From the NCBI RefSeq assembly GCF_000195755.1, contig NC_002937.3, forward strand, positions 3,060,001 to 3,092,000: a stretch of 32,000 nt of DNA, written 5' to 3'. Under the pieces are notes generated by a model. The model was not told the origin of the DNA, made no database searches, and was given only the letters and a program-made list of their open reading frames with translations. The translations under genes were made by a program, and so were the position numbers. Below, in pieces: positions 4,162-15,207 of the stretch; positions within the stretch are counted from its first letter, which is position 1; every line of letters starts with the position of its first letter. The stretch is from Nitratidesulfovibrio vulgaris str. Hildenborough. Its GTDB lineage: Bacteria > Desulfobacterota > Desulfovibrionia > Desulfovibrionales > Desulfovibrionaceae.

Positions 4162-5199
4162 TCAGAATCGCAACGCATACTCCGCAAACTTGTAGCGCAG
4201 GGTACGCGGGCTCACTCCCAGCAGGCGGGCCGCCTCGCCCTTGTTGCCGCCAGTGGCGCGCATGGCCTTGAGGATGACGCGCACCTCGGCCTCTCGTCTG
4301 GCCCGGTCGAGGCTCAGGTCTTCCGGCACCTCGTGGGGCACCCCCACCTCCACCGCAGCGGCTGAACGCAACTCAAGCGGCAGATGTTCAGGCCCGAGAA
4401 CGCCTTCCGGCGCGAGCAACGCGATGCGTTCCACAAGATTCTTGAGCTCGCGCACGTTCCCCGGCCACTGGTACGCCGCCAGCGCCTGTTCCGTCTCCGG
4501 GGCGAAACGGACACCGGGCCGATGGTACTTGTCGCCATAATGGGTCAGGAAATGCCGTGCCAGCGGCACGACCTCCTCCTTGCGGGCACGCAAGGGCGGA
4601 AGGACCACGGGAATGACATTGAGCCTGTAGAAGAGGTCGGCCCTGAACTGCCCCTGCCCCACCATCTCCTGCAAATCACGGTTCGAGGCGGCGACGATAC
4701 GCGCCTGAAACGGGATGTCACGCTGCCCGCCGATGCGCCTGAAACGCTTCTCTTCCAGCACCCGCAGGAAATCCGCCTGATTGGCACCGGGTATCTCGCC
4801 CACTTCGTCAAGGAAGAGCGTCCCCTCCGAAGCGAGCTCGAAACATCCCTGACTCATTCTGTGCGCCCCGGTGAACGCCCCCTGCTCATGGCCGAAGAAC
4901 TTGTCGGCGAAGAGCTCACCCTCGTGGACTCCGCAATTGACTGCCACAAAAGGCTTTTTGGCTCGAATGCCCATATCGTGGATGAGACGGGCGAAGAGTT
5001 CCTTGCCCGTTCCCGTCTCACCATGAATGAGCACTGGCGCATCGGAGGAGGCGACTTGCGACGCAAGCACCCGCAACCTTTGCATGACGCCTGACAGAAG
5101 CAGGAAGTCCGTTCCGTTCTGAAGCGTTTCGCGCTGGGGCGATACCGTCCCCTCAATGGGAAGAGAATTGCCGCTATGCGGTAATTTTTTGCCGCTCAT
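4162..5199 (-). CDS. Sigma-54-dependent transcriptional activator (bEBP) with no N-terminal sensory or receiver domain (AAA+ plus Fis-type HTH only)
   Basis: 345 aa. Walker A GETGTGKE, canonical sigma-54 contact loop GAFTGA, Walker B LFLDEVG, WPGNVRELKN, C-terminal HTH GNKGEAARLLGVSPRTLRYK. Only ~30 residues precede the AAA+ core. Confidence 0.9.
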   Translation of the reverse strand: MSGKKLPHSGNSLPIEGTVSPQRETLQNGTDFLLLSGVMQRLRVLASQVASSDAPVLIHGETGTGKELFARLIHDMGIRAKKPFVAVNCGVHEGELFADKFFGHEQGAFTGAHRMSQGCFELASEGTLFLDEVGEIPGANQADFLRVLEEKRFRRIGGQRDIPFQARIVAASNRDLQEMVGQGQFRADLFYRLNVIPVVLPPLRARKEEVVPLARHFLTHYGDKYHRPGVRFAPETEQALAAYQWPGNVRELKNLVERIALLAPEGVLGPEHLPLELRSAAAVEVGVPHEVPEDLSLDRARREAEVRVILKAMRATGGNKGEAARLLGVSPRTLRYKFAEYALRF

Positions 5200-5445: not shown

Positions 5446-6444
5446 ATGAAAACCCGCAACGCGACGAGGCTCCTCTGCCTGCTCACCTGCGTAGCCCTGG
5501 CCGGGGTGGCCCTGCTTCTCATGGCCATGCCCGCGACAGCCACCAGTGCCGCACAAGACGTGGCCCAGTCGGTCACCCAGTCCGCAGCGGCCCTACCCGG
5601 CAACCATCCGTGGTGGTTCTGGCCCACCACACTGCTGTTCTTCTGTTTCATTCTCGGCATCATCGCCGTTCTCGCCGGTGTGGGCGGCGGCGTGCTCTTC
5701 GTTCCGCTGGTCAGCGGCTTCTTCCCCTTCCACCTCGACTTCGTCCGCGGCGCGGGTCTTCTGGTGGCCCTCGCCGGTGCCCTCGCCGCCGGCCCGGGCC
5801 TTCTCAAGCGCAACCTCGCCAGTCTCCGCCTCGCACTTCCGGTGGCCCTCATCGCCTCCAGCTGCGCCATCGTGGGCGCCATGCTGGGCCTCGCCCTGCC
5901 CACCAACATCGTGCAGATATTCCTCGGTGCCACCATCCTCTTCATCGCGTGCCTGCTCCTGTTCTCCAAGAACTCGGTACGCCCCGAAGTGAAACAGCAG
6001 GACGCCATCGGCCTCGCCCTCGGCCTTCAGGGCGCCTTCATCGAACCCACCACCGGTGAGACCGTGGAATGGAAGACCCACCGCACGCTTCCCGGTCTGC
6101 TGCTGTTCATCATCATCGGCATCATGGCGGGCATGTTCGGCCTTGGCGCAGGCTGGGCCAACGTTCCGGTGCTCAACCTGCTGATGGGCGTTCCGCTGAA
6201 GGTCGCCGTGGGAACCTCCAAGTTCCTGCTCTCCATCACCGACACCTCGGCAGCGTGGGTCTACCTGAATCAGGGCTGTGTCATCCCGCTGATGGCCATT
6301 CCCTCGATCGTCGGCCTGATGCTCGGTTCAGTGGTCGGCGTGCGTCTGCTCGCCGTGGCCAAGCCCAAGTTCATCCGCTACATGGTCATCGGCGTTCTGA
6401 TATTCGCCGGAGCCAAAGCCCTGCTCAAGGGCCTCGGCATCTAA
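5446..6444 (+). CDS. TauE/SafE (TSUP, DUF81) family anion/sulfite-type exporter permease
   Basis: The track ORF starts at 5206, but that extension covers the promoter. The in-frame ATG at 5446 has AGAGGA 9 nt upstream. 332 aa, polytopic, with the family signature LAGVGGGVLFVPLV near the N-terminus and a second glycine-rich half (GMFGLGAGWANVPVL). Confidence 0.8.
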   Translation: MKTRNATRLLCLLTCVALAGVALLLMAMPATATSAAQDVAQSVTQSAAALPGNHPWWFWPTTLLFFCFILGIIAVLAGVGGGVLFVPLVSGFFPFHLDFVRGAGLLVALAGALAAGPGLLKRNLASLRLALPVALIASSCAIVGAMLGLALPTNIVQIFLGATILFIACLLLFSKNSVRPEVKQQDAIGLALGLQGAFIEPTTGETVEWKTHRTLPGLLLFIIIGIMAGMFGLGAGWANVPVLNLLMGVPLKVAVGTSKFLLSITDTSAAWVYLNQGCVIPLMAIPSIVGLMLGSVVGVRLLAVAKPKFIRYMVIGVLIFAGAKALLKGLGI

Positions 6445-6456
6445 GGAGGTCGCACA

Positions 6457-6873
6457 ATGTCGCTTTCCACCAAGGCTTCTCCGGCGCAGCTGCGCTACGC
6501 CAACATGCTCTTCTACGGCTGCTGGTCTTCGCTGGCACTCATGGTCATCACCTACGTGCTGTATGTCAGTGGCATCATCACCCCCCACGTGCCACTCGAG
6601 CAGGTCACACAGCTGTGGGGACAGCGCGTGGACGTCTACCTCGCACAGGGCAACATCCCCACAGGCTGGGGCTGGCTCGCGCTCATCGGGCAGGGCGACT
6701 TCATGAACTTCATCGGCATCGTGCTGCTGGCGGGCATGACCATCATCTGCTACGTGCCGCTGGTCTTCGCCTTCATCCGCAGCAAGGAGCCCATCATGTT
6801 CTGGGTGGCCGTTGGCGAAATCGTCGTGCTGTGCGTGGCGGCATCGGGCATCTTCGGTTCCGGCGGACACTAG
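6457..6873 (+). CDS. Small integral membrane protein, possibly the DUF1634-type partner of TauE-family permeases
   Basis: 138 aa. AAGGAGG 7 nt upstream. 12 nt after the permease stop. Hydrophobic helices (CWSSLALMVITYVLYVSGI, FIGIVLLAGMTIICYVPLVFAF, FWVAVGEIVVLCVAASGIFG). The family assignment comes from memory of typical gene pairing, not from motifs. Confidence 0.7.
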   Translation: MSLSTKASPAQLRYANMLFYGCWSSLALMVITYVLYVSGIITPHVPLEQVTQLWGQRVDVYLAQGNIPTGWGWLALIGQGDFMNFIGIVLLAGMTIICYVPLVFAFIRSKEPIMFWVAVGEIVVLCVAASGIFGSGGH

Positions 6874-6904
6874 GCAACCTGTAGGCAACGCCGTATGGTG
6901 TGTC

Positions 6905-6928
6905 GTGCGGGGGCGTTAGCCGCCGCAC
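6905..6928 (+). other. GC-rich hairpin between the permease operon and the PAS activator gene
   Basis: GTGCGGGGGC (6905-6914), loop GTTA, GCCGCCGCAC (6919-6928): 10-bp stem with one mismatch. No T-tract. Its presence argues for the 6958 start of the next gene rather than 6895. Confidence 0.5.
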
Positions 6929-6957
6929 ACACGACACCCCAAAGGCGGTACAGCGTG

Positions 6958-8382
6958 ATGAAGCAAGCATCCCTGCCAGCAGGTGCCCGGATAGCCGGGC
7001 TCGTCGGGCGCGAACTCGCGCTCGGCCCGGTCTTCGACGCCATCCCCACCGGGTTGGCGGTGCTCGATGCCGACCTGCGCATATGCCTGATGAACCGCGC
7101 CCTTGAGACCATGACGGGGTTCACCACCGCCGAGGTGGCGGGCATCCCCTGCCGGCATGTCCTTCGGGCCAGCGTATGCCTGCACCGCTGCCCTACCCGC
7201 ACCGCTGTCTGCGATGCCACCGGCGGCAACGCGCCATGCCATGCACAAGAAGGCGACCTGCTCAACCGCCATCGCCGCCGCATTCCCGTGCGCCTGACCC
7301 TCGCCCCTCTCCATGATGCGCAGGGGCAGCTGTGCGGCTGGCTGCATACCGCCGAAGACCTTTCGCTCGTCCGTGAGCTTGAAGAACGGTGCAGCAAGGG
7401 GCAGGCATCCGGGCCACTGGTGGGGCGCAGCGTGGTGATGGAGGAACTCTTCCGTACCGTGCAGGCCCTTGCCCAGACCGAGACCCCCGTGCTCATCACG
7501 GGCGAGACGGGCACAGGCAAGGACGCCGTGGCCGAGACCATCCACAAGGCATCACCGCGCGGTCGCGAACCGTTCGTCAAGGCCAGCCTGTCATCCCTTC
7601 CCGATTTTCTGGTGGAGTCCGAACTGTTCGGCCACCGCAAGGGCGCGTTCCCCGGGGCCGAAGAGGACAAGCCCGGCCGTTTCAGGATGGCACAGGGCGG
7701 TACGTTGTGCCTGTCCGAGTTGGGCGACCTGCCCCCCGCCATGCAGGGACGGCTCGTGACGTTCCTCGACGAGGGACTGGTCTGGCCCGTGGGCGCCACA
7801 GACCCCGTCAGGTGCGACGTGCGCCTGCTCGTTGCCAGCAACCTCGACCTGGAGGCCATGGTCGCTTCCGGAAGGCTGCGCGAAGACCTCTACAGCAGAC
7901 TGGCAGCCGTGCGCATCCACCTGCCCCCGCTACGCGAACGGGGCGAAGACCTCGAGTTCCTGCTCAGCCACTACCTTGCCCATTTCGCCGCCAGATTGCG
8001 CAAGACCATACACGGGTTCTCCGGCAAATCTCTGCGCGTGCTGCTTGCCTACGGCTTTCCGGGCAACGTGCGTGAGCTCAAGAACATCGTCGAGTACGCC
8101 GCGACCCTGTGTACGGGCGAGGTCGTCATGCCCTCGCACCTGCCGGCCTACCTCTTCCACACGCGTCCGGCAGCCGCACCCCCGCGTGCCATCGAACGCG
8201 ACACCCCCAAGGGTGCCGCCGAAGACGAGGCATCAGCCCGCAGCAGCGTCGTCGACCTCGAACGCCGTCTCATCGTGGACGCACTGGCACGCGCCGGAAA
8301 CCGCAAGGGCGAGGCCGCCCGCATCCTCGGCTGGGGCAGAAGCACCCTGTGGCGCAAGATGAAACAGTTCGGACTGGAGTGA
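6958..8382 (+). CDS. Sigma-54-dependent transcriptional activator with an N-terminal PAS domain (PAS-AAA+-HTH)
   Basis: PAS-like N-terminus (FDAIPTGLAVLDADLRICLMNRALETMTGFTTAEVAGIPC). AAA+ core (GETGTGKD, LCLSELGDL, FPGNVRELKN). C-terminal HTH (GNRKGEAARILGWGRSTLWRKM). The sigma-54 contact loop reads GAFPGA instead of GAFTGA. The start could alternatively be 6895 (21 extra codons). Confidence 0.85.
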   Translation: MKQASLPAGARIAGLVGRELALGPVFDAIPTGLAVLDADLRICLMNRALETMTGFTTAEVAGIPCRHVLRASVCLHRCPTRTAVCDATGGNAPCHAQEGDLLNRHRRRIPVRLTLAPLHDAQGQLCGWLHTAEDLSLVRELEERCSKGQASGPLVGRSVVMEELFRTVQALAQTETPVLITGETGTGKDAVAETIHKASPRGREPFVKASLSSLPDFLVESELFGHRKGAFPGAEEDKPGRFRMAQGGTLCLSELGDLPPAMQGRLVTFLDEGLVWPVGATDPVRCDVRLLVASNLDLEAMVASGRLREDLYSRLAAVRIHLPPLRERGEDLEFLLSHYLAHFAARLRKTIHGFSGKSLRVLLAYGFPGNVRELKNIVEYAATLCTGEVVMPSHLPAYLFHTRPAAAPPRAIERDTPKGAAEDEASARSSVVDLERRLIVDALARAGNRKGEAARILGWGRSTLWRKMKQFGLE

Positions 8383-8385
8383 CCC

Positions 8386-8733
8386 ATGCCCGCGACACTG
8401 CTCATCCCCCTCTACCGCGACGAGGTCGCACCACGCTTCGACCTCGCCGGTGAAGTGCTGCTCGTGACCCTCGACGCCGAAGGGACCGAGACGGAACGCT
8501 CCAGCGTCGTGCTTGCCCATGCCTCTTCCGAGGACATCTGCCGCATGGCACTGGAAGAGAAGGTCCGCACCGTCATATGCAGCGGCATTGACGAGGAATT
8601 CTGGCAGTACCTGCGCTGGAAGCGTATTGAGGTCATCGACAACGTCATCGGCCCGGTCGAGGAGGCGTTGCGACGTCATGCGGCCGGAATGCTCCGTTCA
8701 GGCGACATCCTCTTCCACAGGGAGGGGGCATGA
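8386..8733 (+). CDS. Small NifX/NifB-C-terminal/NafY-fold protein (dinitrogenase FeMo-cofactor-binding-like domain family)
   Basis: 115 aa. Starts 3 nt after the activator stop. The pattern VAPRFDLAGEVLLVTLD ... VRTVICSGIDEEFWQYLRWKRIEVIDNVIGPVEEAL resembles the family pattern (V-x-P-H-F-G ... V-D-V-V-I-x-G-x-I-G ... G-I-x-V ... EAL). The call rests on similarity by eye only. Confidence 0.6.
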   Translation: MPATLLIPLYRDEVAPRFDLAGEVLLVTLDAEGTETERSSVVLAHASSEDICRMALEEKVRTVICSGIDEEFWQYLRWKRIEVIDNVIGPVEEALRRHAAGMLRSGDILFHREGA

Positions 8734-10463
8734 AGAACCCGCTAGGCACCATGCTCTCGCGTCTGCGCTCGGTGTTCGACGTTCCGGATGAGATCGCGCC
8801 GGAACGCTACCGCATGCTGCGGCGCAAGATAACGCTGCTCATGACGGCGGTGTCGGTTCTGCCGCTGCTCATCCTCACCGCCGTAAGCTACCACCAGTAC
8901 CAGAGCACCCTCACCCGCGAAATCGTCACCCCCGTGCGGGCGCTGGTGAACAAGACCCGCCACTCGTTCGAACTGTTCCTTGCCGAACGGTCGTCCACCG
9001 TGAGCCTTCTCGCCAAGACCTATTCCATGGCGGAACTTTCCGACGAGAAGAACCTCAACCGCATCTTCCTCGCGCTCAAGGGCGAGTTCCCCGGCTTCGT
9101 CGACCTCGGGGTCATCGACGGCAGGGGCGTGCAGGTGGGCTATGTCGGGCCGTACGACGTACGGGGGAAGAACTACTCCGAGGCGGACTGGTACAACCGC
9201 ACCCGCGTGAAGGGTGTCTACATCAGCGACGTGTTCATGGGTTTCAGGCGCTTTCCGCACATCGCCATCGCCGTGCAGCGCATGAACCCCGACGGCAGTT
9301 CGTGGATGCTTCGCGCCACCATCGAGACCACGCAGTTCGACAGGCTCATCGCCTCCATGGGGCTCGACCCGGAGAGTGACGCCTTCCTCATCAACACCGC
9401 CGGAGTACTCCAGACCAACTCGCGCTTCTACGGCAATGTGCTCGACGTGATGCCCATGCCGGTGCCCCACCTGAGCTACGAGCCCTCGATCATCGACACG
9501 GAAGATCCCGAGGGCAGGCAGATTTTCCTCTCTTCAGCCTTTCTGCAGAATGCCGACTTCGCCATCGTGGCGGTCAAGCCCAAGACCGAGATCCTGCGCC
9601 CGTGGACATCGCTGCGCAGCGACCTTCTGATTTTCGTCGCCTTCAGTGTCGCCCTCATCATCTCAGCGGCCTTCGGCTTCACCGACATGCTCGTACGACG
9701 CATGCGCGACAGCGACGAACGGCGCATCGCCGCCTTCGTGCAGATAGAGCACACCCAGAAACTCTCCTCCATCGGCAGGCTGGCGGCGGGCGTCGCCCAC
9801 GAAATCAACAACCCCCTCGCCATCATCAACGAAAAGGCGGGCCTTGCGGCAGACCTCATCGCGCTTTCGCAGGACTTTCCGCAGAAAGAACGCTTCTCGG
9901 CCATCGTCGAGGCCATCTCGCGTTCTGTCGACCGTTGCCGGTCCATCACGCACAGGCTTCTCGGCTTCTCGCGCCGCATGGACGCCACCTACGAGCAACT
10001 CGACGTCAACGGCATCCTCAAAGAGACCATGAGCTTCCTGGAACAGGAGGCCGTGCACCGTTCCATCACCATCGGCACCAGTCTCGACGCGGGGCTGCCA
10101 CGCATCACCTCCGACAGGGGGCAGTTGCAGCAGGTCTTCCTCAACATCATCAACAACGCCTTCGCCGCAGTGCAGGACGGTGGTTCCGTGACGCTCACCA
10201 CGTTCGCAGCGGACGGCGGCATGGTGGGCGTCTCGATACAGGACAACGGAAAGGGCATGTCTGAAGAAGTGCAGCGGCACATCTTCGAACCGTTCTTCAC
10301 CACCAAGAAGACGGCGGGGACGGGCCTAGGCATGTTCATCACCTACGGCATCATCAAGCGACTGGGCGGAGAGATCGGCATCAACAGCAGGGAGGGCGTT
10401 GGCACCACCGTCACCGTCTACCTGCCGCAGGACGCGCCCGCACCGCAATCGCTGGAGAACTAG
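8730..10463 (+). CDS. Sensor histidine kinase with a periplasmic Cache-like domain (TM-sensor-TM-HisKA-HATPase)
   Basis: 577 aa. The ATG overlaps the preceding stop (ATGA at 8730-8733). TM helices LLMTAVSVLPLLILTAVSY and LLIFVAFSVALIISAAFGF flank a ~250-aa extracytoplasmic region. H-box AAGVAHEINNPLAII, N-box FLNIINNAFAA, G-boxes IQDNGKGM and GTGLGM. Confidence 0.9.
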   Translation: MKNPLGTMLSRLRSVFDVPDEIAPERYRMLRRKITLLMTAVSVLPLLILTAVSYHQYQSTLTREIVTPVRALVNKTRHSFELFLAERSSTVSLLAKTYSMAELSDEKNLNRIFLALKGEFPGFVDLGVIDGRGVQVGYVGPYDVRGKNYSEADWYNRTRVKGVYISDVFMGFRRFPHIAIAVQRMNPDGSSWMLRATIETTQFDRLIASMGLDPESDAFLINTAGVLQTNSRFYGNVLDVMPMPVPHLSYEPSIIDTEDPEGRQIFLSSAFLQNADFAIVAVKPKTEILRPWTSLRSDLLIFVAFSVALIISAAFGFTDMLVRRMRDSDERRIAAFVQIEHTQKLSSIGRLAAGVAHEINNPLAIINEKAGLAADLIALSQDFPQKERFSAIVEAISRSVDRCRSITHRLLGFSRRMDATYEQLDVNGILKETMSFLEQEAVHRSITIGTSLDAGLPRITSDRGQLQQVFLNIINNAFAAVQDGGSVTLTTFAADGGMVGVSIQDNGKGMSEEVQRHIFEPFFTTKKTAGTGLGMFITYGIIKRLGGEIGINSREGVGTTVTVYLPQDAPAPQSLEN

Positions 10464-10466
10464 CCC

Positions 10467-10853
10467 ATGCAGGATCTGAAGGTCTTACTCGTCGACGACG
10501 AAGAGGAGTTCGTCACCACCCTTTCCGAACGTCTGGCACTGCGGGGCCTTGCCACACGTGTGGCCATGGACGGCGAACAGGCGTTGCGCGAAGTGCAGAA
10601 CGACCCTCCCCATGTGGTGGTGCTCGACCTCATGATGCCGGGCATCAAGGGTACCGAGACGCTACGCCGCATCAAGGCGATGCATCCGGGCGTGCAGGTC
10701 ATCCTGCTCACCGGGCACGGCAGCACACGCGACGGTATCGAAGGCATGCGCCTCGGGGCCTTCGACTACCTCACCAAACCCCTGCGGCTTGAAGACCTGC
10801 TGGAGAAGCTGCGCGAGGCCGGAGCACTGGCCCGCACGGCCATGGGAGCCTGA
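10467..10853 (+). CDS. Stand-alone response-regulator receiver (CheY-like, no output domain)
   Basis: 128 aa, starting 3 nt after the kinase stop. LLVDDEEEF, phospho-acceptor context VVVLDLMMPG, LTGHGS, conserved LTKP. Confidence 0.9.
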   Translation: MQDLKVLLVDDEEEFVTTLSERLALRGLATRVAMDGEQALREVQNDPPHVVVLDLMMPGIKGTETLRRIKAMHPGVQVILLTGHGSTRDGIEGMRLGAFDYLTKPLRLEDLLEKLREAGALARTAMGA

Positions 10854-10854
10854 C

Positions 10855-11514
10855 ATGCGCGAGAACGCCTGTGTGGGATGTCTCACCGCATCCGCATCGC
10901 ACGAACTGCAGAACGCCCTCGCGGTCATCCGCGAATCTGCCGGCCTGATGCAAGACCTCATCGCCCTTGGCGGAGAGAACATCCCCCGGCGTGAGCGCAT
11001 CGTCGAACTGCTCTCTCTCATCCAGCAGCAGGTGGCGCGCGGCGGCGAGTTGGCGGGGGGGCTCAACACCCTTGGTCACGCATGGGAAGAGGATGACGGC
11101 GACCTCGCCCGCATCCTCGAAGAGTTCGTCATCCTTGCCGGGCGCATGGGCAGGATGCGTTCCGTCACCGTGGGACTGGCACCGGGCGAAAGCGGCTTGC
11201 GCGCGCCGAGTGCGGGGCTTGCCTTGCGAGTGCTGCTGTTCGACCTTTTGCAGACCTGCCTTGAAGAGGCTCCCGGTTGCGCGCTCACCTTCGCCCCGGC
11301 AAGGCGCGACGGCATTCCCGGAATACATCTGCGAGTAGGACTGGCACGTTGCGACGCGACTACAGACGTACTGCGCCGACTCGACGCGCAACTTGCCCGT
11401 CTCGGAGCCCGTAAGGAGCCCGACAACGGGCACGGAACGCCCGCAAGGGACGAACCGGACGGAGTGTTGTACTATTTCACGGCCTGTCCCTCTGCAACAG
11501 GGCACAGGGCATAG
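10855..11514 (+). CDS. Soluble histidine-kinase-like protein with an intact H-box but a degenerate ATP-binding domain (pseudo-kinase or phosphotransfer candidate)
   Basis: In-frame ATG 1 nt after the receiver stop; the track ORF start at 10789 overlaps the receiver gene. 219 aa. H-box SASHELQNALAVIRESAGL (His codon at 10900-10902). The region where the N-box is expected reads LLFDLLQTCLEE, with no Asn. No DxGxG or GxGxG motifs were found. Confidence 0.7.
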   Translation: MRENACVGCLTASASHELQNALAVIRESAGLMQDLIALGGENIPRRERIVELLSLIQQQVARGGELAGGLNTLGHAWEEDDGDLARILEEFVILAGRMGRMRSVTVGLAPGESGLRAPSAGLALRVLLFDLLQTCLEEAPGCALTFAPARRDGIPGIHLRVGLARCDATTDVLRRLDAQLARLGARKEPDNGHGTPARDEPDGVLYYFTACPSATGHRA

Positions 11515-11633: not shown

Positions 11634-11933
11634 ATGAAACGTATCCGCGAAGCACTGGAACGCAGTTTTGCCGGGGCGGCCTTCGCCGAAGCCGGTGCCC
11701 ACGACGAGGCCCTTGCCATGGCAGGTATCACCCCGCTGGTGGGATGTGCCACAAGCGTGGAGGACATGTTCGCAGCCGTCGCTTTCGCCGAAGCCGGTTG
11801 CCGTGAAGAAGCCCTTGAGGTTCTCGGTTGTGTGAGGCCCGTACGCCGGGTCATCCATTCCGACTTCCTCAGCAGCGTGGGACTTGGCGAAGTGCCCGTG
11901 TGGTACGGCCTTGCCCCGGCCATGACGAATTAG
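11634..11933 (+). CDS. Hypothetical small protein with an internal duplicated FAEAG-x3-EAL motif
   Basis: 99 aa. GGAGGAG 6-7 nt upstream of the ATG at 11634 (the track ORF starts at 11604). The two motif copies are encoded by an exact 15-nt DNA repeat TTCGCCGAAGCCGGT at 11682-11696 and 11784-11798. No recognisable family. Confidence 0.6.
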   Translation: MKRIREALERSFAGAAFAEAGAHDEALAMAGITPLVGCATSVEDMFAAVAFAEAGCREEALEVLGCVRPVRRVIHSDFLSSVGLGEVPVWYGLAPAMTN

Positions 11934-12131: not shown

Positions 12132-12587
12132 ATGAAGGGTATCAAGGTCATGCTCGTGGACGACGAGGAAAGCTTCGTCCGTACACTTGCCGAACGTATG
12201 CAGATGCGCGACGCGGGTACCAAGGTCGCCCTCACCGGCGAAGAGGCACTGCAACTCGTCTCCACCGGCGAAGTGCCCGACGTCATGGTGCTCGACCTGC
12301 GCATGCCCGGCGTGGACGGCATGGAAGTGCTGCGCCGCGTGAAGAAGGACTACCCCAAGGTGCAGGTCATCGTCCTCACCGGCCATGGCACGGAGAAGGA
12401 CGAAGAGGAGGCCCGCAGGCTTGGCGCCTTCGAATATCACAAGAAGCCCGTGGATATCGACATCCTCGTCCGCGACATCCGCCGGGCCTTCCGCGAGACC
12501 CTCGAAGACACCATGGTGGCCGCCACCCTTGCACAGGCTGGCGACTACGAGGGGGCCAAGCAGATTCTCGACGAAAGCGACAAGTAG
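12132..12587 (+). CDS. Response-regulator receiver with a short C-terminal tail (no DNA-binding or enzymatic output)
   Basis: 151 aa. AAGGAGAG 5 nt upstream. MLVDDEESF, VMVLDLRMPG, LTGHGT, HKKP. The ~30-aa tail contains LAQAGDYEGAKQIL. Confidence 0.9.
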   Translation: MKGIKVMLVDDEESFVRTLAERMQMRDAGTKVALTGEEALQLVSTGEVPDVMVLDLRMPGVDGMEVLRRVKKDYPKVQVIVLTGHGTEKDEEEARRLGAFEYHKKPVDIDILVRDIRRAFRETLEDTMVAATLAQAGDYEGAKQILDESDK

Positions 12588-12600
12588 CCCAGTACGGGCC

Positions 12601-13725
12601 ATGCGGGTTCTTCTCGTCGACGACGAAGAGGCGTTCGTCAACCTGTTGGCGGAACGCCTCGAGACACGGGGCATCACGGTGCTTGTCGCCCATGATGTGG
12701 CCTCGGCACTCGACCTGCTGGCGGCACATCCTGTCGATGTGGCGGTGCTGGATGTCTGCATGCCCGGACGCGACGGTCTCGACCTGTTGCGGGTCATGCG
12801 GGAACGCCACCCTCTCGTGGAGGCGCTCATGCTGACCGGCTCGTCGGATGTCCGCAACGCCGTCGAGGGAATGCGACTCGGGGCCTGCAACTACCTGCTC
12901 AAACCCGTCGACATCGAAGAGTTGCTCCGTGAACTGCGTCTCGCCCATGAACGCAAGATACGCCGCGAAGAGAGCGCCCGCATGATCGAGGCGGGCAAGC
13001 TCGCCTCGATGGGCCGCATGGCGGAAGGCGTGGCGCACGAGATCAACAACCCCGTCAATATCATCGCCAACGCTGCGGGCTGGATCGAAGACCTGCTCGA
13101 AGAGCCGGACATCGCATCCGGCCCGCACGTGGCGGAGATGCGCCGCACGCTCGCCAAGATCAAACAGCAGGGCGTGCGTGTGCGCGAAATCACCCGCAAA
13201 CTGCTCTGCTTCGGACGCGGTCTCGACCCCCGACCGCAACCTGTGGCCTGTGCCACGCTACTGCGCGAGACACTGCAACTCGTCGCCAGCCGCTGTGAGG
13301 CCCTTGCCGTGGACGTGGTGGTAGACCTGCCCGAAGGGCTGCCCGAGATCATGGCCCCGCCCGTGGAATTGCGGCAGGTCTTCCTGCATGTGATCGAGAA
13401 CGCGCTGGATGCCATGGAAGAGAACGGCGGCACGCTCACGGTCAGACTCAGGCTCATGCACGGGCAGGACGAAGAGCACGACGCCTTGCACGTGGCCATC
13501 ACCGACACGGGACACGGCATCGCACCGGCCCTGTTGCCGCGCGTCTTCGACCCCTTCTTCTCGACCCGCAGCGTCGGCAGGGGCATGGGCCTCGGACTTT
13601 CGGTGAGTTACGGCGTGGTACGTGCCCTTGGCGGTGACATCAACCTCACCAGCGACCCCGGACGCACGGTCTGTTCCATTCGCCTGCCGCTGACCGCGAA
13701 ACCGCCCTGCGCCCGCGAGGCGTGA
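12601..13725 (+). CDS. Cytoplasmic hybrid receiver-histidine kinase (REC-HisKA-HATPase)
   Basis: In-frame ATG at 12601, 13 nt after the preceding stop; the track start at 12385 overlaps the upstream gene. 374 aa. REC domain (LLVDDEEAF, VAVLDVCMPG, LLKP). H-box AEGVAHEINNPVNII, N-box HVIENALDA, G-boxes ITDTGHGI and GMGLGL. No TM segments. Confidence 0.85.
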   Translation: MRVLLVDDEEAFVNLLAERLETRGITVLVAHDVASALDLLAAHPVDVAVLDVCMPGRDGLDLLRVMRERHPLVEALMLTGSSDVRNAVEGMRLGACNYLLKPVDIEELLRELRLAHERKIRREESARMIEAGKLASMGRMAEGVAHEINNPVNIIANAAGWIEDLLEEPDIASGPHVAEMRRTLAKIKQQGVRVREITRKLLCFGRGLDPRPQPVACATLLRETLQLVASRCEALAVDVVVDLPEGLPEIMAPPVELRQVFLHVIENALDAMEENGGTLTVRLRLMHGQDEEHDALHVAITDTGHGIAPALLPRVFDPFFSTRSVGRGMGLGLSVSYGVVRALGGDINLTSDPGRTVCSIRLPLTAKPPCAREA

Positions 13726-13820: not shown

Positions 13821-15017
13821 CTACGCGAAGCGACCGTGACCATTGTTGCCCGCCCATGAAGGCAGCAGCACCGAGACGCGTGCGCCACGTCCGAAACCGG
13901 CATCCACCTCGATGTCCCAACCGCACTCGCCAGCGATGCGCCGGGCGATGCACAGCCCCATGCCCACCCCGTCAGCCTTGCGCGAGAAGAAGGGGTCGAA
14001 GATGAATGCCATGTCTTCGGGGGCGATGCCGGGGCCATTGTCCGCCACCTCGACCCGGCACAGTCCTCCTACGCACAGCAGCCTGCATGAGACCTCACCG
14101 CCGTCTTCCCGCGCGAAGTCCGAGGCATTGGCCAGAATCTCGAAGACAAGACGCTGCAAGAGCGAGGCAGCCCCGTGCACCATGTGCCCGTCCGGCACCT
14201 CGACCTGCCAGTGCAGGGTACGCCCCTGCTGTGCAGCACGCTGCCGCGCCTGTTCGAGGGCTGCCAGCACCGACTCGCCCACGGGCACCACCGTCCGGAT
14301 GGCATGGGGAAGCGAGGCGAAATCGGATACGGCACCGACCATGTGCTCCAGCCTTCGCGACTCTTCGATGATGGTATCAAGATAGCCACGTACCGGGTCT
14401 TCGGCCGGGGCGCGCCGCACAGCAAGACTGGCGAAGCCCCCTATGGTCATCGTGCGGTTGCGCACCTGATGCGCCACCGACATGGCAAGATGCGCCAGCC
14501 TCTCGCGCCCCTCCTCCACAGCGCGCAGGTCGCGGAACGAACGCAACGCAGCCGTCACCGTGGTGTGCAGCCGTTCTGCCGTGAGTTCGGTCTTGTGCCG
14601 GTAATCGTTGATGTCCAGTTCAGCGATGACGCGGTGTTCGGGGGCATGTCCCGGTTGTCCGGTACGCAGCACGATGCGCACGAGGTTGTTGCCTAGTTCC
14701 TCCCGCACCTTGCGCGCCACCTGCAATCCGGCATCGTTGCTTTCCATGACGACATCCAGCAACAGGACGGCGGTATCGGGGTGCCGACGCAGCATGTCCA
14801 GACTCTCGGCACCACTCGTGGCTTCGAGAAGGTGCAGCTTGCGCCCCTCGAATGAAAAATCGGAAAGAACCAGCCGCGTGATGGTCTGCACCTCGGCATC
14901 ATCGTCGGCCACCAGCACGTACCACGGAGTCGCTGCCGCACGGGGAACGTCCTGCCCGGGCTGTTCCTCCTCCGCGAAGAACAGCAGGTCGTCTTTCTCT
15001 TGCCCTGTCTGGGTCAT
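13821..15017 (-). CDS. Cytoplasmic hybrid receiver-histidine kinase, convergent with the cluster
   Basis: The ATG at 15017 is preceded by GGAGGAG; the track start at 15155 adds 46 unsupported codons. 398 aa. REC domain (VLVADDDAEV, VLLLDVVMES, INDYRHKTEL, a signature I associate with the DUF3369/RpfG-type receiver). Atypical H-box MSVAHQVRNRTMTIGGF. ATPase N-box FEILANASDF, G-boxes VADNGPGI and GMGLCI. Confidence 0.8.
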   Translation of the reverse strand: MTQTGQEKDDLLFFAEEEQPGQDVPRAAATPWYVLVADDDAEVQTITRLVLSDFSFEGRKLHLLEATSGAESLDMLRRHPDTAVLLLDVVMESNDAGLQVARKVREELGNNLVRIVLRTGQPGHAPEHRVIAELDINDYRHKTELTAERLHTTVTAALRSFRDLRAVEEGRERLAHLAMSVAHQVRNRTMTIGGFASLAVRRAPAEDPVRGYLDTIIEESRRLEHMVGAVSDFASLPHAIRTVVPVGESVLAALEQARQRAAQQGRTLHWQVEVPDGHMVHGAASLLQRLVFEILANASDFAREDGGEVSCRLLCVGGLCRVEVADNGPGIAPEDMAFIFDPFFSRKADGVGMGLCIARRIAGECGWDIEVDAGFGRGARVSVLLPSWAGNNGHGRFA

Positions 15018-15154
15018 CACTCCTCCACGGATACGGCACGGGATGCCTTCGGAGAATAGACCCATAGTACCCCAAGTACATGCCAACGCAACCCTGCGAG
15101 AGGAACCATCGGGCCGGAAAGGCGTCCGGCACCATGCCATCTTCCCGTCAGGCA

Positions 15155-15207
15155 TGGAGAAAGAAAGAGGGGAGCCTCACGCACAGGGGGGGTGGCGTGA
15201 GGCTCCC
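15155..15207 (-). terminator. Rho-independent terminator of acs
   Basis: Perfect 13-bp stem GGGAGCCTCACGC (15170-15182) / GCGTGAGGCTCCC (15195-15207), 12-nt loop. On the minus strand it is followed by CTCTTTCTTTCTCC. It lies about 60 nt downstream of the acs stop. Confidence 0.75.

Follow-up and report, generated by a model that had tools for sequence, protein, structure and literature searches.

Kinase-derived dimeric phosphotransferases are, to our knowledge, known from a few systems only (Spo0B, ChpT and PhyT), each of which was found by genetics. Spo0B of Bacillus sporulation is without the HisKA-type H-E-x-x-N box. RetS of Pseudomonas aeruginosa is a large hybrid sensor with domains beyond its kinase region, and DivL, a pseudo-kinase of Caulobacter, carries a Tyr instead of the phospho-His and has kept its CA domain. 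ChpT has an atypical Bergerat fold in which the ATP lid is replaced; it does not autophosphorylate, and no nucleotide was bound in its crystals (PMC3433190). Spo0B and PhyT have been described as degenerated kinases working as phosphotransferases, and PhyT, whose ATPase domain is degenerated, receives phosphate from SdrG, a single-domain receiver, and hands it on to PhyR; it has a negative regulatory or phosphatase function as well (PMC5898713). Here we analyze DVU2964, a stand-alone kinase-dead histidine kinase encoded in a 32,000-nt stretch of the genome of Nitratidesulfovibrio (Desulfovibrio) vulgaris Hildenborough (NC_002937.3, positions 3,060,001 to 3,092,000; this whole stretch is called the window below). 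Its sequence, its predicted structure, its conserved gene context and the analogy with the systems above give about an even chance that it is a kinase-derived dimeric histidine phosphotransferase that works independently of ATP, possibly also as a phosphatase.

DVU2964 resembles ChpT in being soluble and about 220 aa long, in having an N-terminal DHp-type hairpin with a His and a Bergerat-like C-terminal domain from which the ATP lid is gone, and, in the role proposed here, in shuttling phosphate among receiver domains, single-domain receivers included. Unlike ChpT, which belongs to the CckA-ChpT-CtrA/CpdR pathway of Caulobacter and Brucella (Alphaproteobacteria), it is found in Thermodesulfobacteriota with other partners, and where the ChpT H-box has a proline kink (Pro38), the DVU2964 family has Ala or Val at His+5. 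Homology to ChpT was considered and rejected: neither DVU2964 nor 27 relatives matched PF10090, and no ChpT appeared in profile searches of PDB at E<=10 or among the top 50 Foldseek matches of the whole chain and of the C-terminal domain. Like Spo0B, which connects Spo0F, a single-domain receiver, with a terminal receiver (PMC3433190, PMC5898713), DVU2964 is placed between receivers of these two kinds, although the terminal receivers of its cassette have no DNA-binding domain. Homology to Spo0B was likewise rejected, since neither the profile matches in PDB at E<=10 nor the 50 best-ranked fold matches included a Spo0B chain. The logic proposed for DVU2964 is that of PhyT/PhyP in the alphaproteobacterial general stress response. 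However, PhyT is membrane-anchored, with a periplasmic domain and an HRxxN box (HisKA_2/HWE), whereas DVU2964 is soluble with a HisKA H-E-x-x-N box, and SdrG is fed by kinases encoded at scattered genomic sites, whereas the partners of DVU2964 all lie in one cassette. RetS has a CA domain that has lost ATP binding (PMC8498467), as DVU2964 probably has, but RetS targets the kinase GacS via DHp contacts, while DVU2964 amounts to a DHp-CA core and nothing more, has an invariant His and is always encoded beside receivers. DivL, in which the kinase fold is used as a receiver-binding module, is among the fold matches (4q20); in contrast to DivL, the DVU2964 family has an invariant His and has lost the ATP site. 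The concept is a known one, of the ChpT, Spo0B and PhyT kind by proposed function and architecture, and the DVU2964 family is, as judged from sequence and top-ranked fold matches, a member of none of those families.

Sequence and predicted structure of DVU2964

The ATG of DVU2964 lies at position 10855 of the window and its TAG stop at 11512-11514, giving a product of 219 aa (domain and neighbor coordinates are collected in Table 1). The TGA of the upstream receiver gene occupies 10851-10853, and one base (10854) separates it from the ATG. The ATG at 10855 was preferred over an upstream TTG start at 10789 (241 aa) because it is preceded by a GGGAG Shine-Dalgarno sequence 7-11 nt upstream and because the resulting product is identical to the deposited protein, GenBank AAS97435.1, which is annotated as 'sensor histidine kinase / Histidine kinase A domain protein'. 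The extension from the TTG overlaps the receiver gene and is unlike the N-terminal extensions of homologs. The locus name DVU2964 was assigned from gene order and the sigma54-regulome paper (PMC4641369). The GC content at third codon positions (GC3) is 0.73, slightly below that of neighboring genes, and a promoter/terminator scan of the 120-nt AT-rich gap 3' of the gene gave nothing above shuffled expectation on the plus strand.

The H-box of the DHp hairpin, H16-E-L-Q-N20, is intact, with the His16 codon at 10900-10902. HisKA is the sole Pfam match to DVU2964 (E 1.4e-4, 22.2 bits, under the gathering score of 26.9), and a search of NCBIfam with this protein gave no match. HisKA was matched by 26 of 27 diverse relatives, and the family profile matched kinases in PDB at E 3.6e-10, so that the H-box is more than a chance resemblance. 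The DHp of DVU2964 shares 34% identity over 107 residues with that of the adjoining Cache kinase DVU2962 (E 2e-11), which is its closest relative within the window. An earlier note, made from the letters of the window, had described a stand-alone protein starting 1 nt past the receiver gene, with a good H-box and no transmembrane or sensor region. All of this agrees with the start site, with the HisKA, PDB and Cache kinase matches, and with the AlphaFold2 model, in which the hairpin begins at residue 2 and no transmembrane or sensor segment is present. The two strings quoted in that note were both located in the protein, SASHELQNALAVIRESAGL at residues 13-31 and LLFDLLQTCLEE at residues 127-138.

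In a 27-member alignment (24-60% identity with DVU2964), residues H16, N20, L22, E27, G30, L31, D34, Q59, R62, L70, N71, H75 and R97 are invariant. All of them except R97 fall in the DHp, and E17 is nearly invariant. Conservation is strongest on helix alpha1, from the His to His+18, which in HK853-RR468 complexes is the surface by which kinases dock receivers. The alpha1 docking faces of the Cache kinase and the pseudo-kinase are almost identical (HEINNPLAIINEKAGL versus HELQNALAVIRESAGL). Since the His/Glu/Asn set and this docking face are kept, we argue that the protein may still carry out phosphoryl chemistry with receivers. Invariant N71 and H75 belong to a family-specific motif, L-N-x-x-A-H (about 11065-11079), at the end of DHp helix 2, where it takes the place of the L-L-x-F-S-R motif of the parent kinases; as estimated from the helix register, both residues should be level with His16. 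Redox or metal sensing by cysteines was also considered and was rejected, as C6, C135 and C211 are near-invariant in close relatives but not kept family-wide.

The C-terminal half has the fold of a CA domain without its nucleotide site. No match to HATPase_c was found in DVU2964 at E<=1 (Pfam) or in the 27 diverse relatives at E<=0.1, whereas the three neighboring kinases of the window match it at 1e-19 to 7e-24. When profiles of the DVU2964 relatives and of the adjacent Cache kinase with its orthologs were aligned by hhalign, the match (probability 99.3, E 5e-20, 155 columns) covered the DHp in full and extended through the first half of the CA domain, including the N-box helix and the next beta-hairpin, and ended where the G1 box of the kinase (SIQDNGKGM) begins. 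In this alignment the Asn residues of the kinase NxxxNA motif fall on F129 and Q133 of DVU2964, and position 133, that of the Mg-binding Asn in the kinase, varies among family members (Q, R, S or D). Beyond the end of the hhalign match, a hand alignment pairs RLGA of DVU2964 with RLGG of the kinase; between these points the kinase has about 27 residues (G1, F, G2 and the ATP lid) and DVU2964 about 9, and the roughly 18 missing residues would sit between the beta-hairpin and the next helix. Regular expressions for the N-box, DxGxG and GxGxG matched 2, 6 and 4 of 86 family members, respectively, versus 82, 82 and 82 of 82 adjacent kinases.

The AlphaFold2 model of DVU2964, built with 23 homologs, has a predicted local distance difference test score (pLDDT) of 84.7 and consists of two long helices followed by an alpha/beta domain, in which a strand pair (residues 143-162) runs directly into a helix (170-182). 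The C-terminal domain modeled alone gave a pLDDT of 84.9 and a predicted template modeling score (pTM) of 0.81. Foldseek matched this domain to the CA domains of the kinases VanS, RetS, HK853, ThkA, QseC and DivL at template modeling (TM) scores of 0.5-0.6, with RetS ranked second. The whole chain was matched to kinase DHp-CA cores, the best being the kinase region of RetS, bound to the DHp of GacS (7n0e_B, E 3.1e-7), and DivL was among the matches of the whole chain as well as of the C-terminal domain. No match to the Hpt domain (PF01627) was found in DVU2964 or the 27 relatives, and the model shows a two-helix hairpin with an alpha/beta domain. The absence of N, G1 and G2 boxes claimed in the earlier note is thus borne out by the HATPase_c scans, the hhalign comparison and the motif counts, and the HMM and structural alignments brought up no overlooked box. 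The structure refines that account in one respect: the CA-derived alpha/beta fold persists, and only its ATP lid and nucleotide motifs are gone. Because the ATP lid and the Mg-binding Asn are lost, it can reasonably be inferred from sequence and model that DVU2964 is unable to autophosphorylate or use ATP.

The family and its cassette

A word-indexed search found only 23 relatives of DVU2964; when a profile was searched exhaustively, 5554 proteins were matched at E<=0.001. At E<=1e-30, the profile search gave 168 protein cluster representatives, nearly all of those listed being 205-235 aa long. Among 146 representative sequences that were retrieved (median length 220 aa), H[ED]xxN is kept in all 146, E-[STA]-x-G-L in 116 and L-N-x-x-[AG]-H in 119, while an N-box-like string occurs in 2. 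A scan of one genome per species of the Genome Taxonomy Database (GTDB) confirmed at least 449 loci with a relative, mostly in Thermodesulfobacteriota; the best 80 of the 449 fall in Desulfovibrionales, Syntrophobacterales, Desulfomonilales, Desulfobacterales and Desulfarculia, with a few in Gemmatimonadota. Judged by its 168 clusters and at least 449 loci, the family is old and under purifying selection. No model specific to it was found in Pfam or NCBIfam. In the literature, DVU2964 was found named only as an operon member, and no earlier account of such a family was found.

By sequence, genuine kinases of the same type as ZraS, FixL, ThkA and CckA are the closest relatives of solved structure (E 3.6e-10 downwards), and the family seems to have arisen when a ZraS/FixL/ThkA-like HisKA kinase degenerated independently. 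Paralogous cassettes (L002 and L021) have the order Cache kinase, receiver (REC), soluble kinase of about 320 aa, REC. An origin of the family from this soluble kinase was considered and gained no support, because it shares only 22% identity with the pseudo-kinase of the same genome and is no closer to it than the Cache kinase is. A second kind of kinase-dead paralog, a dCache-linked membrane protein of 549-563 aa, was seen in two metagenome-assembled genomes (MAGs) of Desulfomonilaceae (L019:3724-5370 and L020:3679-5367). It matches HisKA at E 7.6e-11 and HATPase_c with 21 bits (under the 26.4-bit cut-off), its N-box is replaced by FDILDES, and it has no DxGxG; its gene lies between an intact Cache kinase-receiver pair and a second receiver directly 5' of the stand-alone pseudo-kinase.

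To describe the surroundings of the family, HMMs made from the genes of the window were searched against all open reading frames (ORFs) of 86 loci. In all 81 loci with an upstream match, a receiver gene lies directly 5' of the stand-alone pseudo-kinase (the other five had no such match), and a median of 22 nt separates the receiver stop from the start of the family-profile match. Of the 86 loci, 77 contain a dCache kinase, usually located immediately 5' of that receiver (median of 2 nt between kinase stop and REC1); it is the only complete kinase conserved in the cassette. One to four further single-domain receivers, most often two, follow 3' in 75 loci, and a protein of about 97 aa lies directly 3' of the pseudo-kinase in 35. 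In the window itself, the genes of the kinase, REC1 and the pseudo-kinase are spaced by 1-3 nt, the receivers are 45-52% identical to one another, and REC3 is fused to a kinase core (DVU2967), whereas most other genomes encode its counterpart separately, as a protein of about 142 aa. The acidic pair, phospho-Asp, Thr and Lys are kept in all receiver classes of the cassettes. The same synteny was obtained with independently called genes and precomputed Pfam matches in N. liaohensis and two metagenomic lineages. In three Gemmatimonadota MAGs (L027, L058 and L068) the order is pseudo-kinase, REC-REC tandem protein, dCache kinase, REC, REC, so that the partnership of the components is independent of the Desulfovibrio gene order.

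Candidate roles of DVU2964

Three roles had been put forward in the earlier note, namely a phosphotransfer module, a phosphatase for the neighboring receivers and a heterodimerizing inhibitor of adjacent kinases. These are the main candidates here as well, and the comparative data favor phospho-His chemistry, because the His, the Glu (H+1) and the Asn (H+4) are invariant or nearly so and the order kinase-receiver-X-receiver-receiver is locked. The combination of one conserved complete kinase with 3-4 receivers that retain Asp, Thr and Lys fits a relay or hub. By analogy, the order kinase-REC-X-REC-REC is the genomic image of a His-Asp-His-Asp relay such as KinA-Spo0F-Spo0B-Spo0A or Pak-SdrG-PhyT-PhyR. 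In the relay whose partners, direction of phosphate flow and output we infer on this basis, the dCache kinase DVU2962 would autophosphorylate and pass its phosphate to the single-domain receiver DVU2963 (REC1), from which it would move to His16 of DVU2964, probably a homodimer formed via the DHp hairpin. DVU2964 would then phosphorylate the downstream receivers, that is, DVU2966 and the receiver of DVU2967 (stand-alone REC2 and REC3 elsewhere), and could also drain the receivers once input stops, as PhyT does, since it has kept the H-E-x-x-N needed for HisKA phosphatase chemistry. The relay would tune the sigma54-dependent operon that encodes the TSUP/TauE permease.

Several observations weigh against a phosphotransferase. 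The DHp domains of DVU2964 and the Cache kinase are close paralogs with nearly the same alpha1 docking residues, and the receivers are similar to one another, so that the kinase might phosphorylate all of them directly and a relay would be unnecessary. A phosphatase would be just as likely to keep an intact His within H-E-x-x-N. Output domains are missing from the terminal receivers. The FATGUY motif of several intermediary receivers is absent from REC1 to REC4, in all of which beta4 is of the LTGHG type and beta5 bears an aromatic residue, although the significance of the motif is itself unsettled. Finally, sequence searches brought up neither ChpT nor Spo0B, both are missing from the 50 best fold matches, and the analogy with them is one of architecture, not homology.

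A dedicated receiver phosphatase is the alternative to which we give most weight, although we consider it rather unlikely. The DHp (His16, Glu17 and Asn20) would position a water molecule and dephosphorylate REC1, REC2 or REC3 without forming a stable phospho-His, thereby resetting or sharpening the output of the Cache kinase. The invariant HisKA phosphatase motif H-E/D-x-x-N/T speaks for this, and in HisKA kinases the DHp carries the phosphatase activity, for which the ATP lid is dispensable (the DHp of EnvZ is active alone). PhyP/PhyT, too, has a degenerate ATPase domain, and its initial description was that of a phosphatase-like negative regulator (PMC5898713). The near-identical docking faces of kinase and pseudo-kinase would suit opposed enzymes acting on the same receivers. 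On the other hand, the His is invariant in every sequence examined, and several HisKA phosphatase activities tolerate its loss. The Cache kinase itself keeps H-E-x-x-N (HEINN) and by sequence should already be bifunctional, and a phosphatase alone leaves 3-4 receivers per single kinase unexplained.

Less probable still is that DVU2964 serves as a partner of the Cache kinase, forming a DHp heterodimer or complex with DVU2962 (or DVU2967), either as a split kinase that is phosphorylated in trans or as a RetS-like block of autophosphorylation. The DHp identity with DVU2962, the hhalign match and the spacing of the kinase, REC1 and pseudo-kinase genes, which suggests co-assembly, would be in keeping with such a complex, as would the best whole-chain fold match, because RetS has lost ATP binding and acts by DHp-DHp contacts (PMC8498467). 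A pure inhibitor, however, needs no invariant His, Glu and Asn, the invariant stretch of alpha1 below the His is the receiver-docking face and not the dimer core, and in the Gemmatimonadota loci a REC-REC gene separates the pseudo-kinase from the kinase. That DVU2964 has remained an autokinase, using a hidden or atypical nucleotide site missed by motif and HMM searches, appears very improbable: the CA-type fold is retained, but about 18 residues with G1, F, G2 and the ATP lid are missing, the position of the Mg-binding Asn is variable, and none of the 27 members scores on HATPase_c. We give hardly any credence to a functionless, decaying remnant of a duplicated kinase. Its likeness to the neighboring kinase and its slightly low GC3 could be read in this way, but decay is hard to reconcile with 168 clusters that are uniform in length, retain invariant motifs and keep a fixed synteny in several orders and a second phylum.

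Neighboring genes and wider meaning

The features of the window that bear on DVU2964 are listed in Table 1.

Table 1. Coordinates within the window of DVU2964, its domains and the genes around it
Feature	Position	Strand	Basis
TSUP/TauE permease DVU2958 and 138-aa membrane protein	5446..6873	+	own-HMM synteny
PAS-sigma54 enhancer-binding protein (EBP) DVU2960, GAFPGA variant instead of GAFTGA	6895..8382	+	Pfam; motif PMC4641369
Nitro_FeMo-Co-like (NifX-like) protein, 115 aa	8386..8733	+	Pfam
dCache sensor histidine kinase DVU2962, HisKA and HATPase_c intact	8730..10463	+	Pfam
REC1 DVU2963, single-domain receiver, 128 aa	10467..10853	+	Pfam Response_reg 4.2e-29
DVU2964, stand-alone kinase-dead histidine kinase, 219 aa, DHp and lid-less CA-like domain	10855..11514	+	
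DHp helical hairpin of DVU2964 (residues 1-77; helices 2-42, 46-76)	10855..11085	+	predicted secondary structure, conservation
CA-derived alpha/beta domain of DVU2964 (residues 78-219), without ATP lid or N, G1, F, G2 boxes	11086..11511	+	
DVU2965 ('s97'), conserved 99-aa protein, no Pfam family	11634..11933	+	alignment of 4 orthologs
REC2 DVU2966, single-domain receiver with C-terminal tail (VAATLAQAGD)	12132..12587	+	Pfam Response_reg 3.6e-24
DVU2967, REC3 fused to HisKA-HATPase_c	12601..13725	+	Pfam, locus comparison
Receiver-HisKA-HATPase_c hybrid kinase, 444 aa, convergent, right after the cassette	13821-15155	-	

A sigma54 promoter activated by the divergent EBP DVU2956 drives the operon DVU2957-DVU2964 (DVU2957-DVU2967 in the methods of the same paper), and DVU2956 (4162-5199, minus strand) has no N-terminal sensory or receiver domain (PMC4641369). 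Because DVU2956 lacks such a domain of its own, an output-less receiver of the cassette might act on it in trans. The TSUP/TauE permease and the 138-aa protein, at the head of this sigma54-dependent operon, are likely its regulated cargo. The permease was found in 49 of the 86 loci and its small membrane partner in 45, either upstream or downstream of the signaling genes, and DVU2958 is a member of TSUP clade B, for which a possible role in sulfate transport by sulfate reducers has been discussed (PMC5840216). The second EBP, DVU2960, did not bind the DVU2957 upstream region in an electrophoretic mobility shift assay (PMC4641369). In 30 of the 86 loci, a PAS-EBP gene and a NifX-like gene form a pair directly 5' of the Cache kinase, and the pairing of DVU2960 with the NifX-like protein at this position suggests a cofactor- or metal-linked input.

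Proteins of the DVU2965 type (about 97-99 aa) were also found at L001:8942-9229, L002:8801-9091 and L005:8774-9067. DVU2965 contains two copies of the motif (F/V)A-x-x-AFAEAG-x-x-(D/E)EAL, and the similar string VAATLAQAGDYEGA forms the C-terminal tail of the receiver DVU2966; the motif and the tail may be a shared docking helix or its mimic. The receiver match of the convergent 444-aa hybrid kinase is weak (27.5 bits, under the cut-off), and the protein also has a faint DUF3369 match. It is missing at this position in N. liaohensis (L001), which has a DUF3313 gene there, and in the L005 MAG, which has a DUF554 gene.

As a tentative wider proposal, which we hold with less than even confidence, DVU2964 may be the founding member of an unrecognized, phylum-wide phosphotransferase family that is independent of ChpT, Spo0B and PhyT. 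It would form the hub of a fixed relay, made up of a dCache kinase, 3-4 single-domain receivers and a 97-aa accessory protein, that governs a sigma54-dependent TSUP clade-B permease, a candidate sulfate/sulfite transporter, in sulfate reducers and syntrophs. If this is true, a large family that can be recognized by sequence would be added to the few systems described above, with a diagnostic signature of about 220 aa, T-H-E-x-x-N-V-L-A-I-I-K-E-S-A-G-L, L-N-x-x-A-H and no ATP boxes. Database entries for its members read 'sensor histidine kinase' or 'hypothetical protein', so that they may be wrongly counted as kinases when the two-component proteins of sulfate reducers and syntrophs are surveyed or their wiring is predicted. 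With its fixed order, the cassette occurs in the genetically tractable D. vulgaris Hildenborough, which makes the hypothesis directly testable, and the link to a clade-B permease that may transport sulfate (PMC5840216) offers a physiological handle. Even if DVU2964 were only a phosphatase or an inhibitor, it would still be a clean natural case of a kinase paralog repurposed as a negative element.

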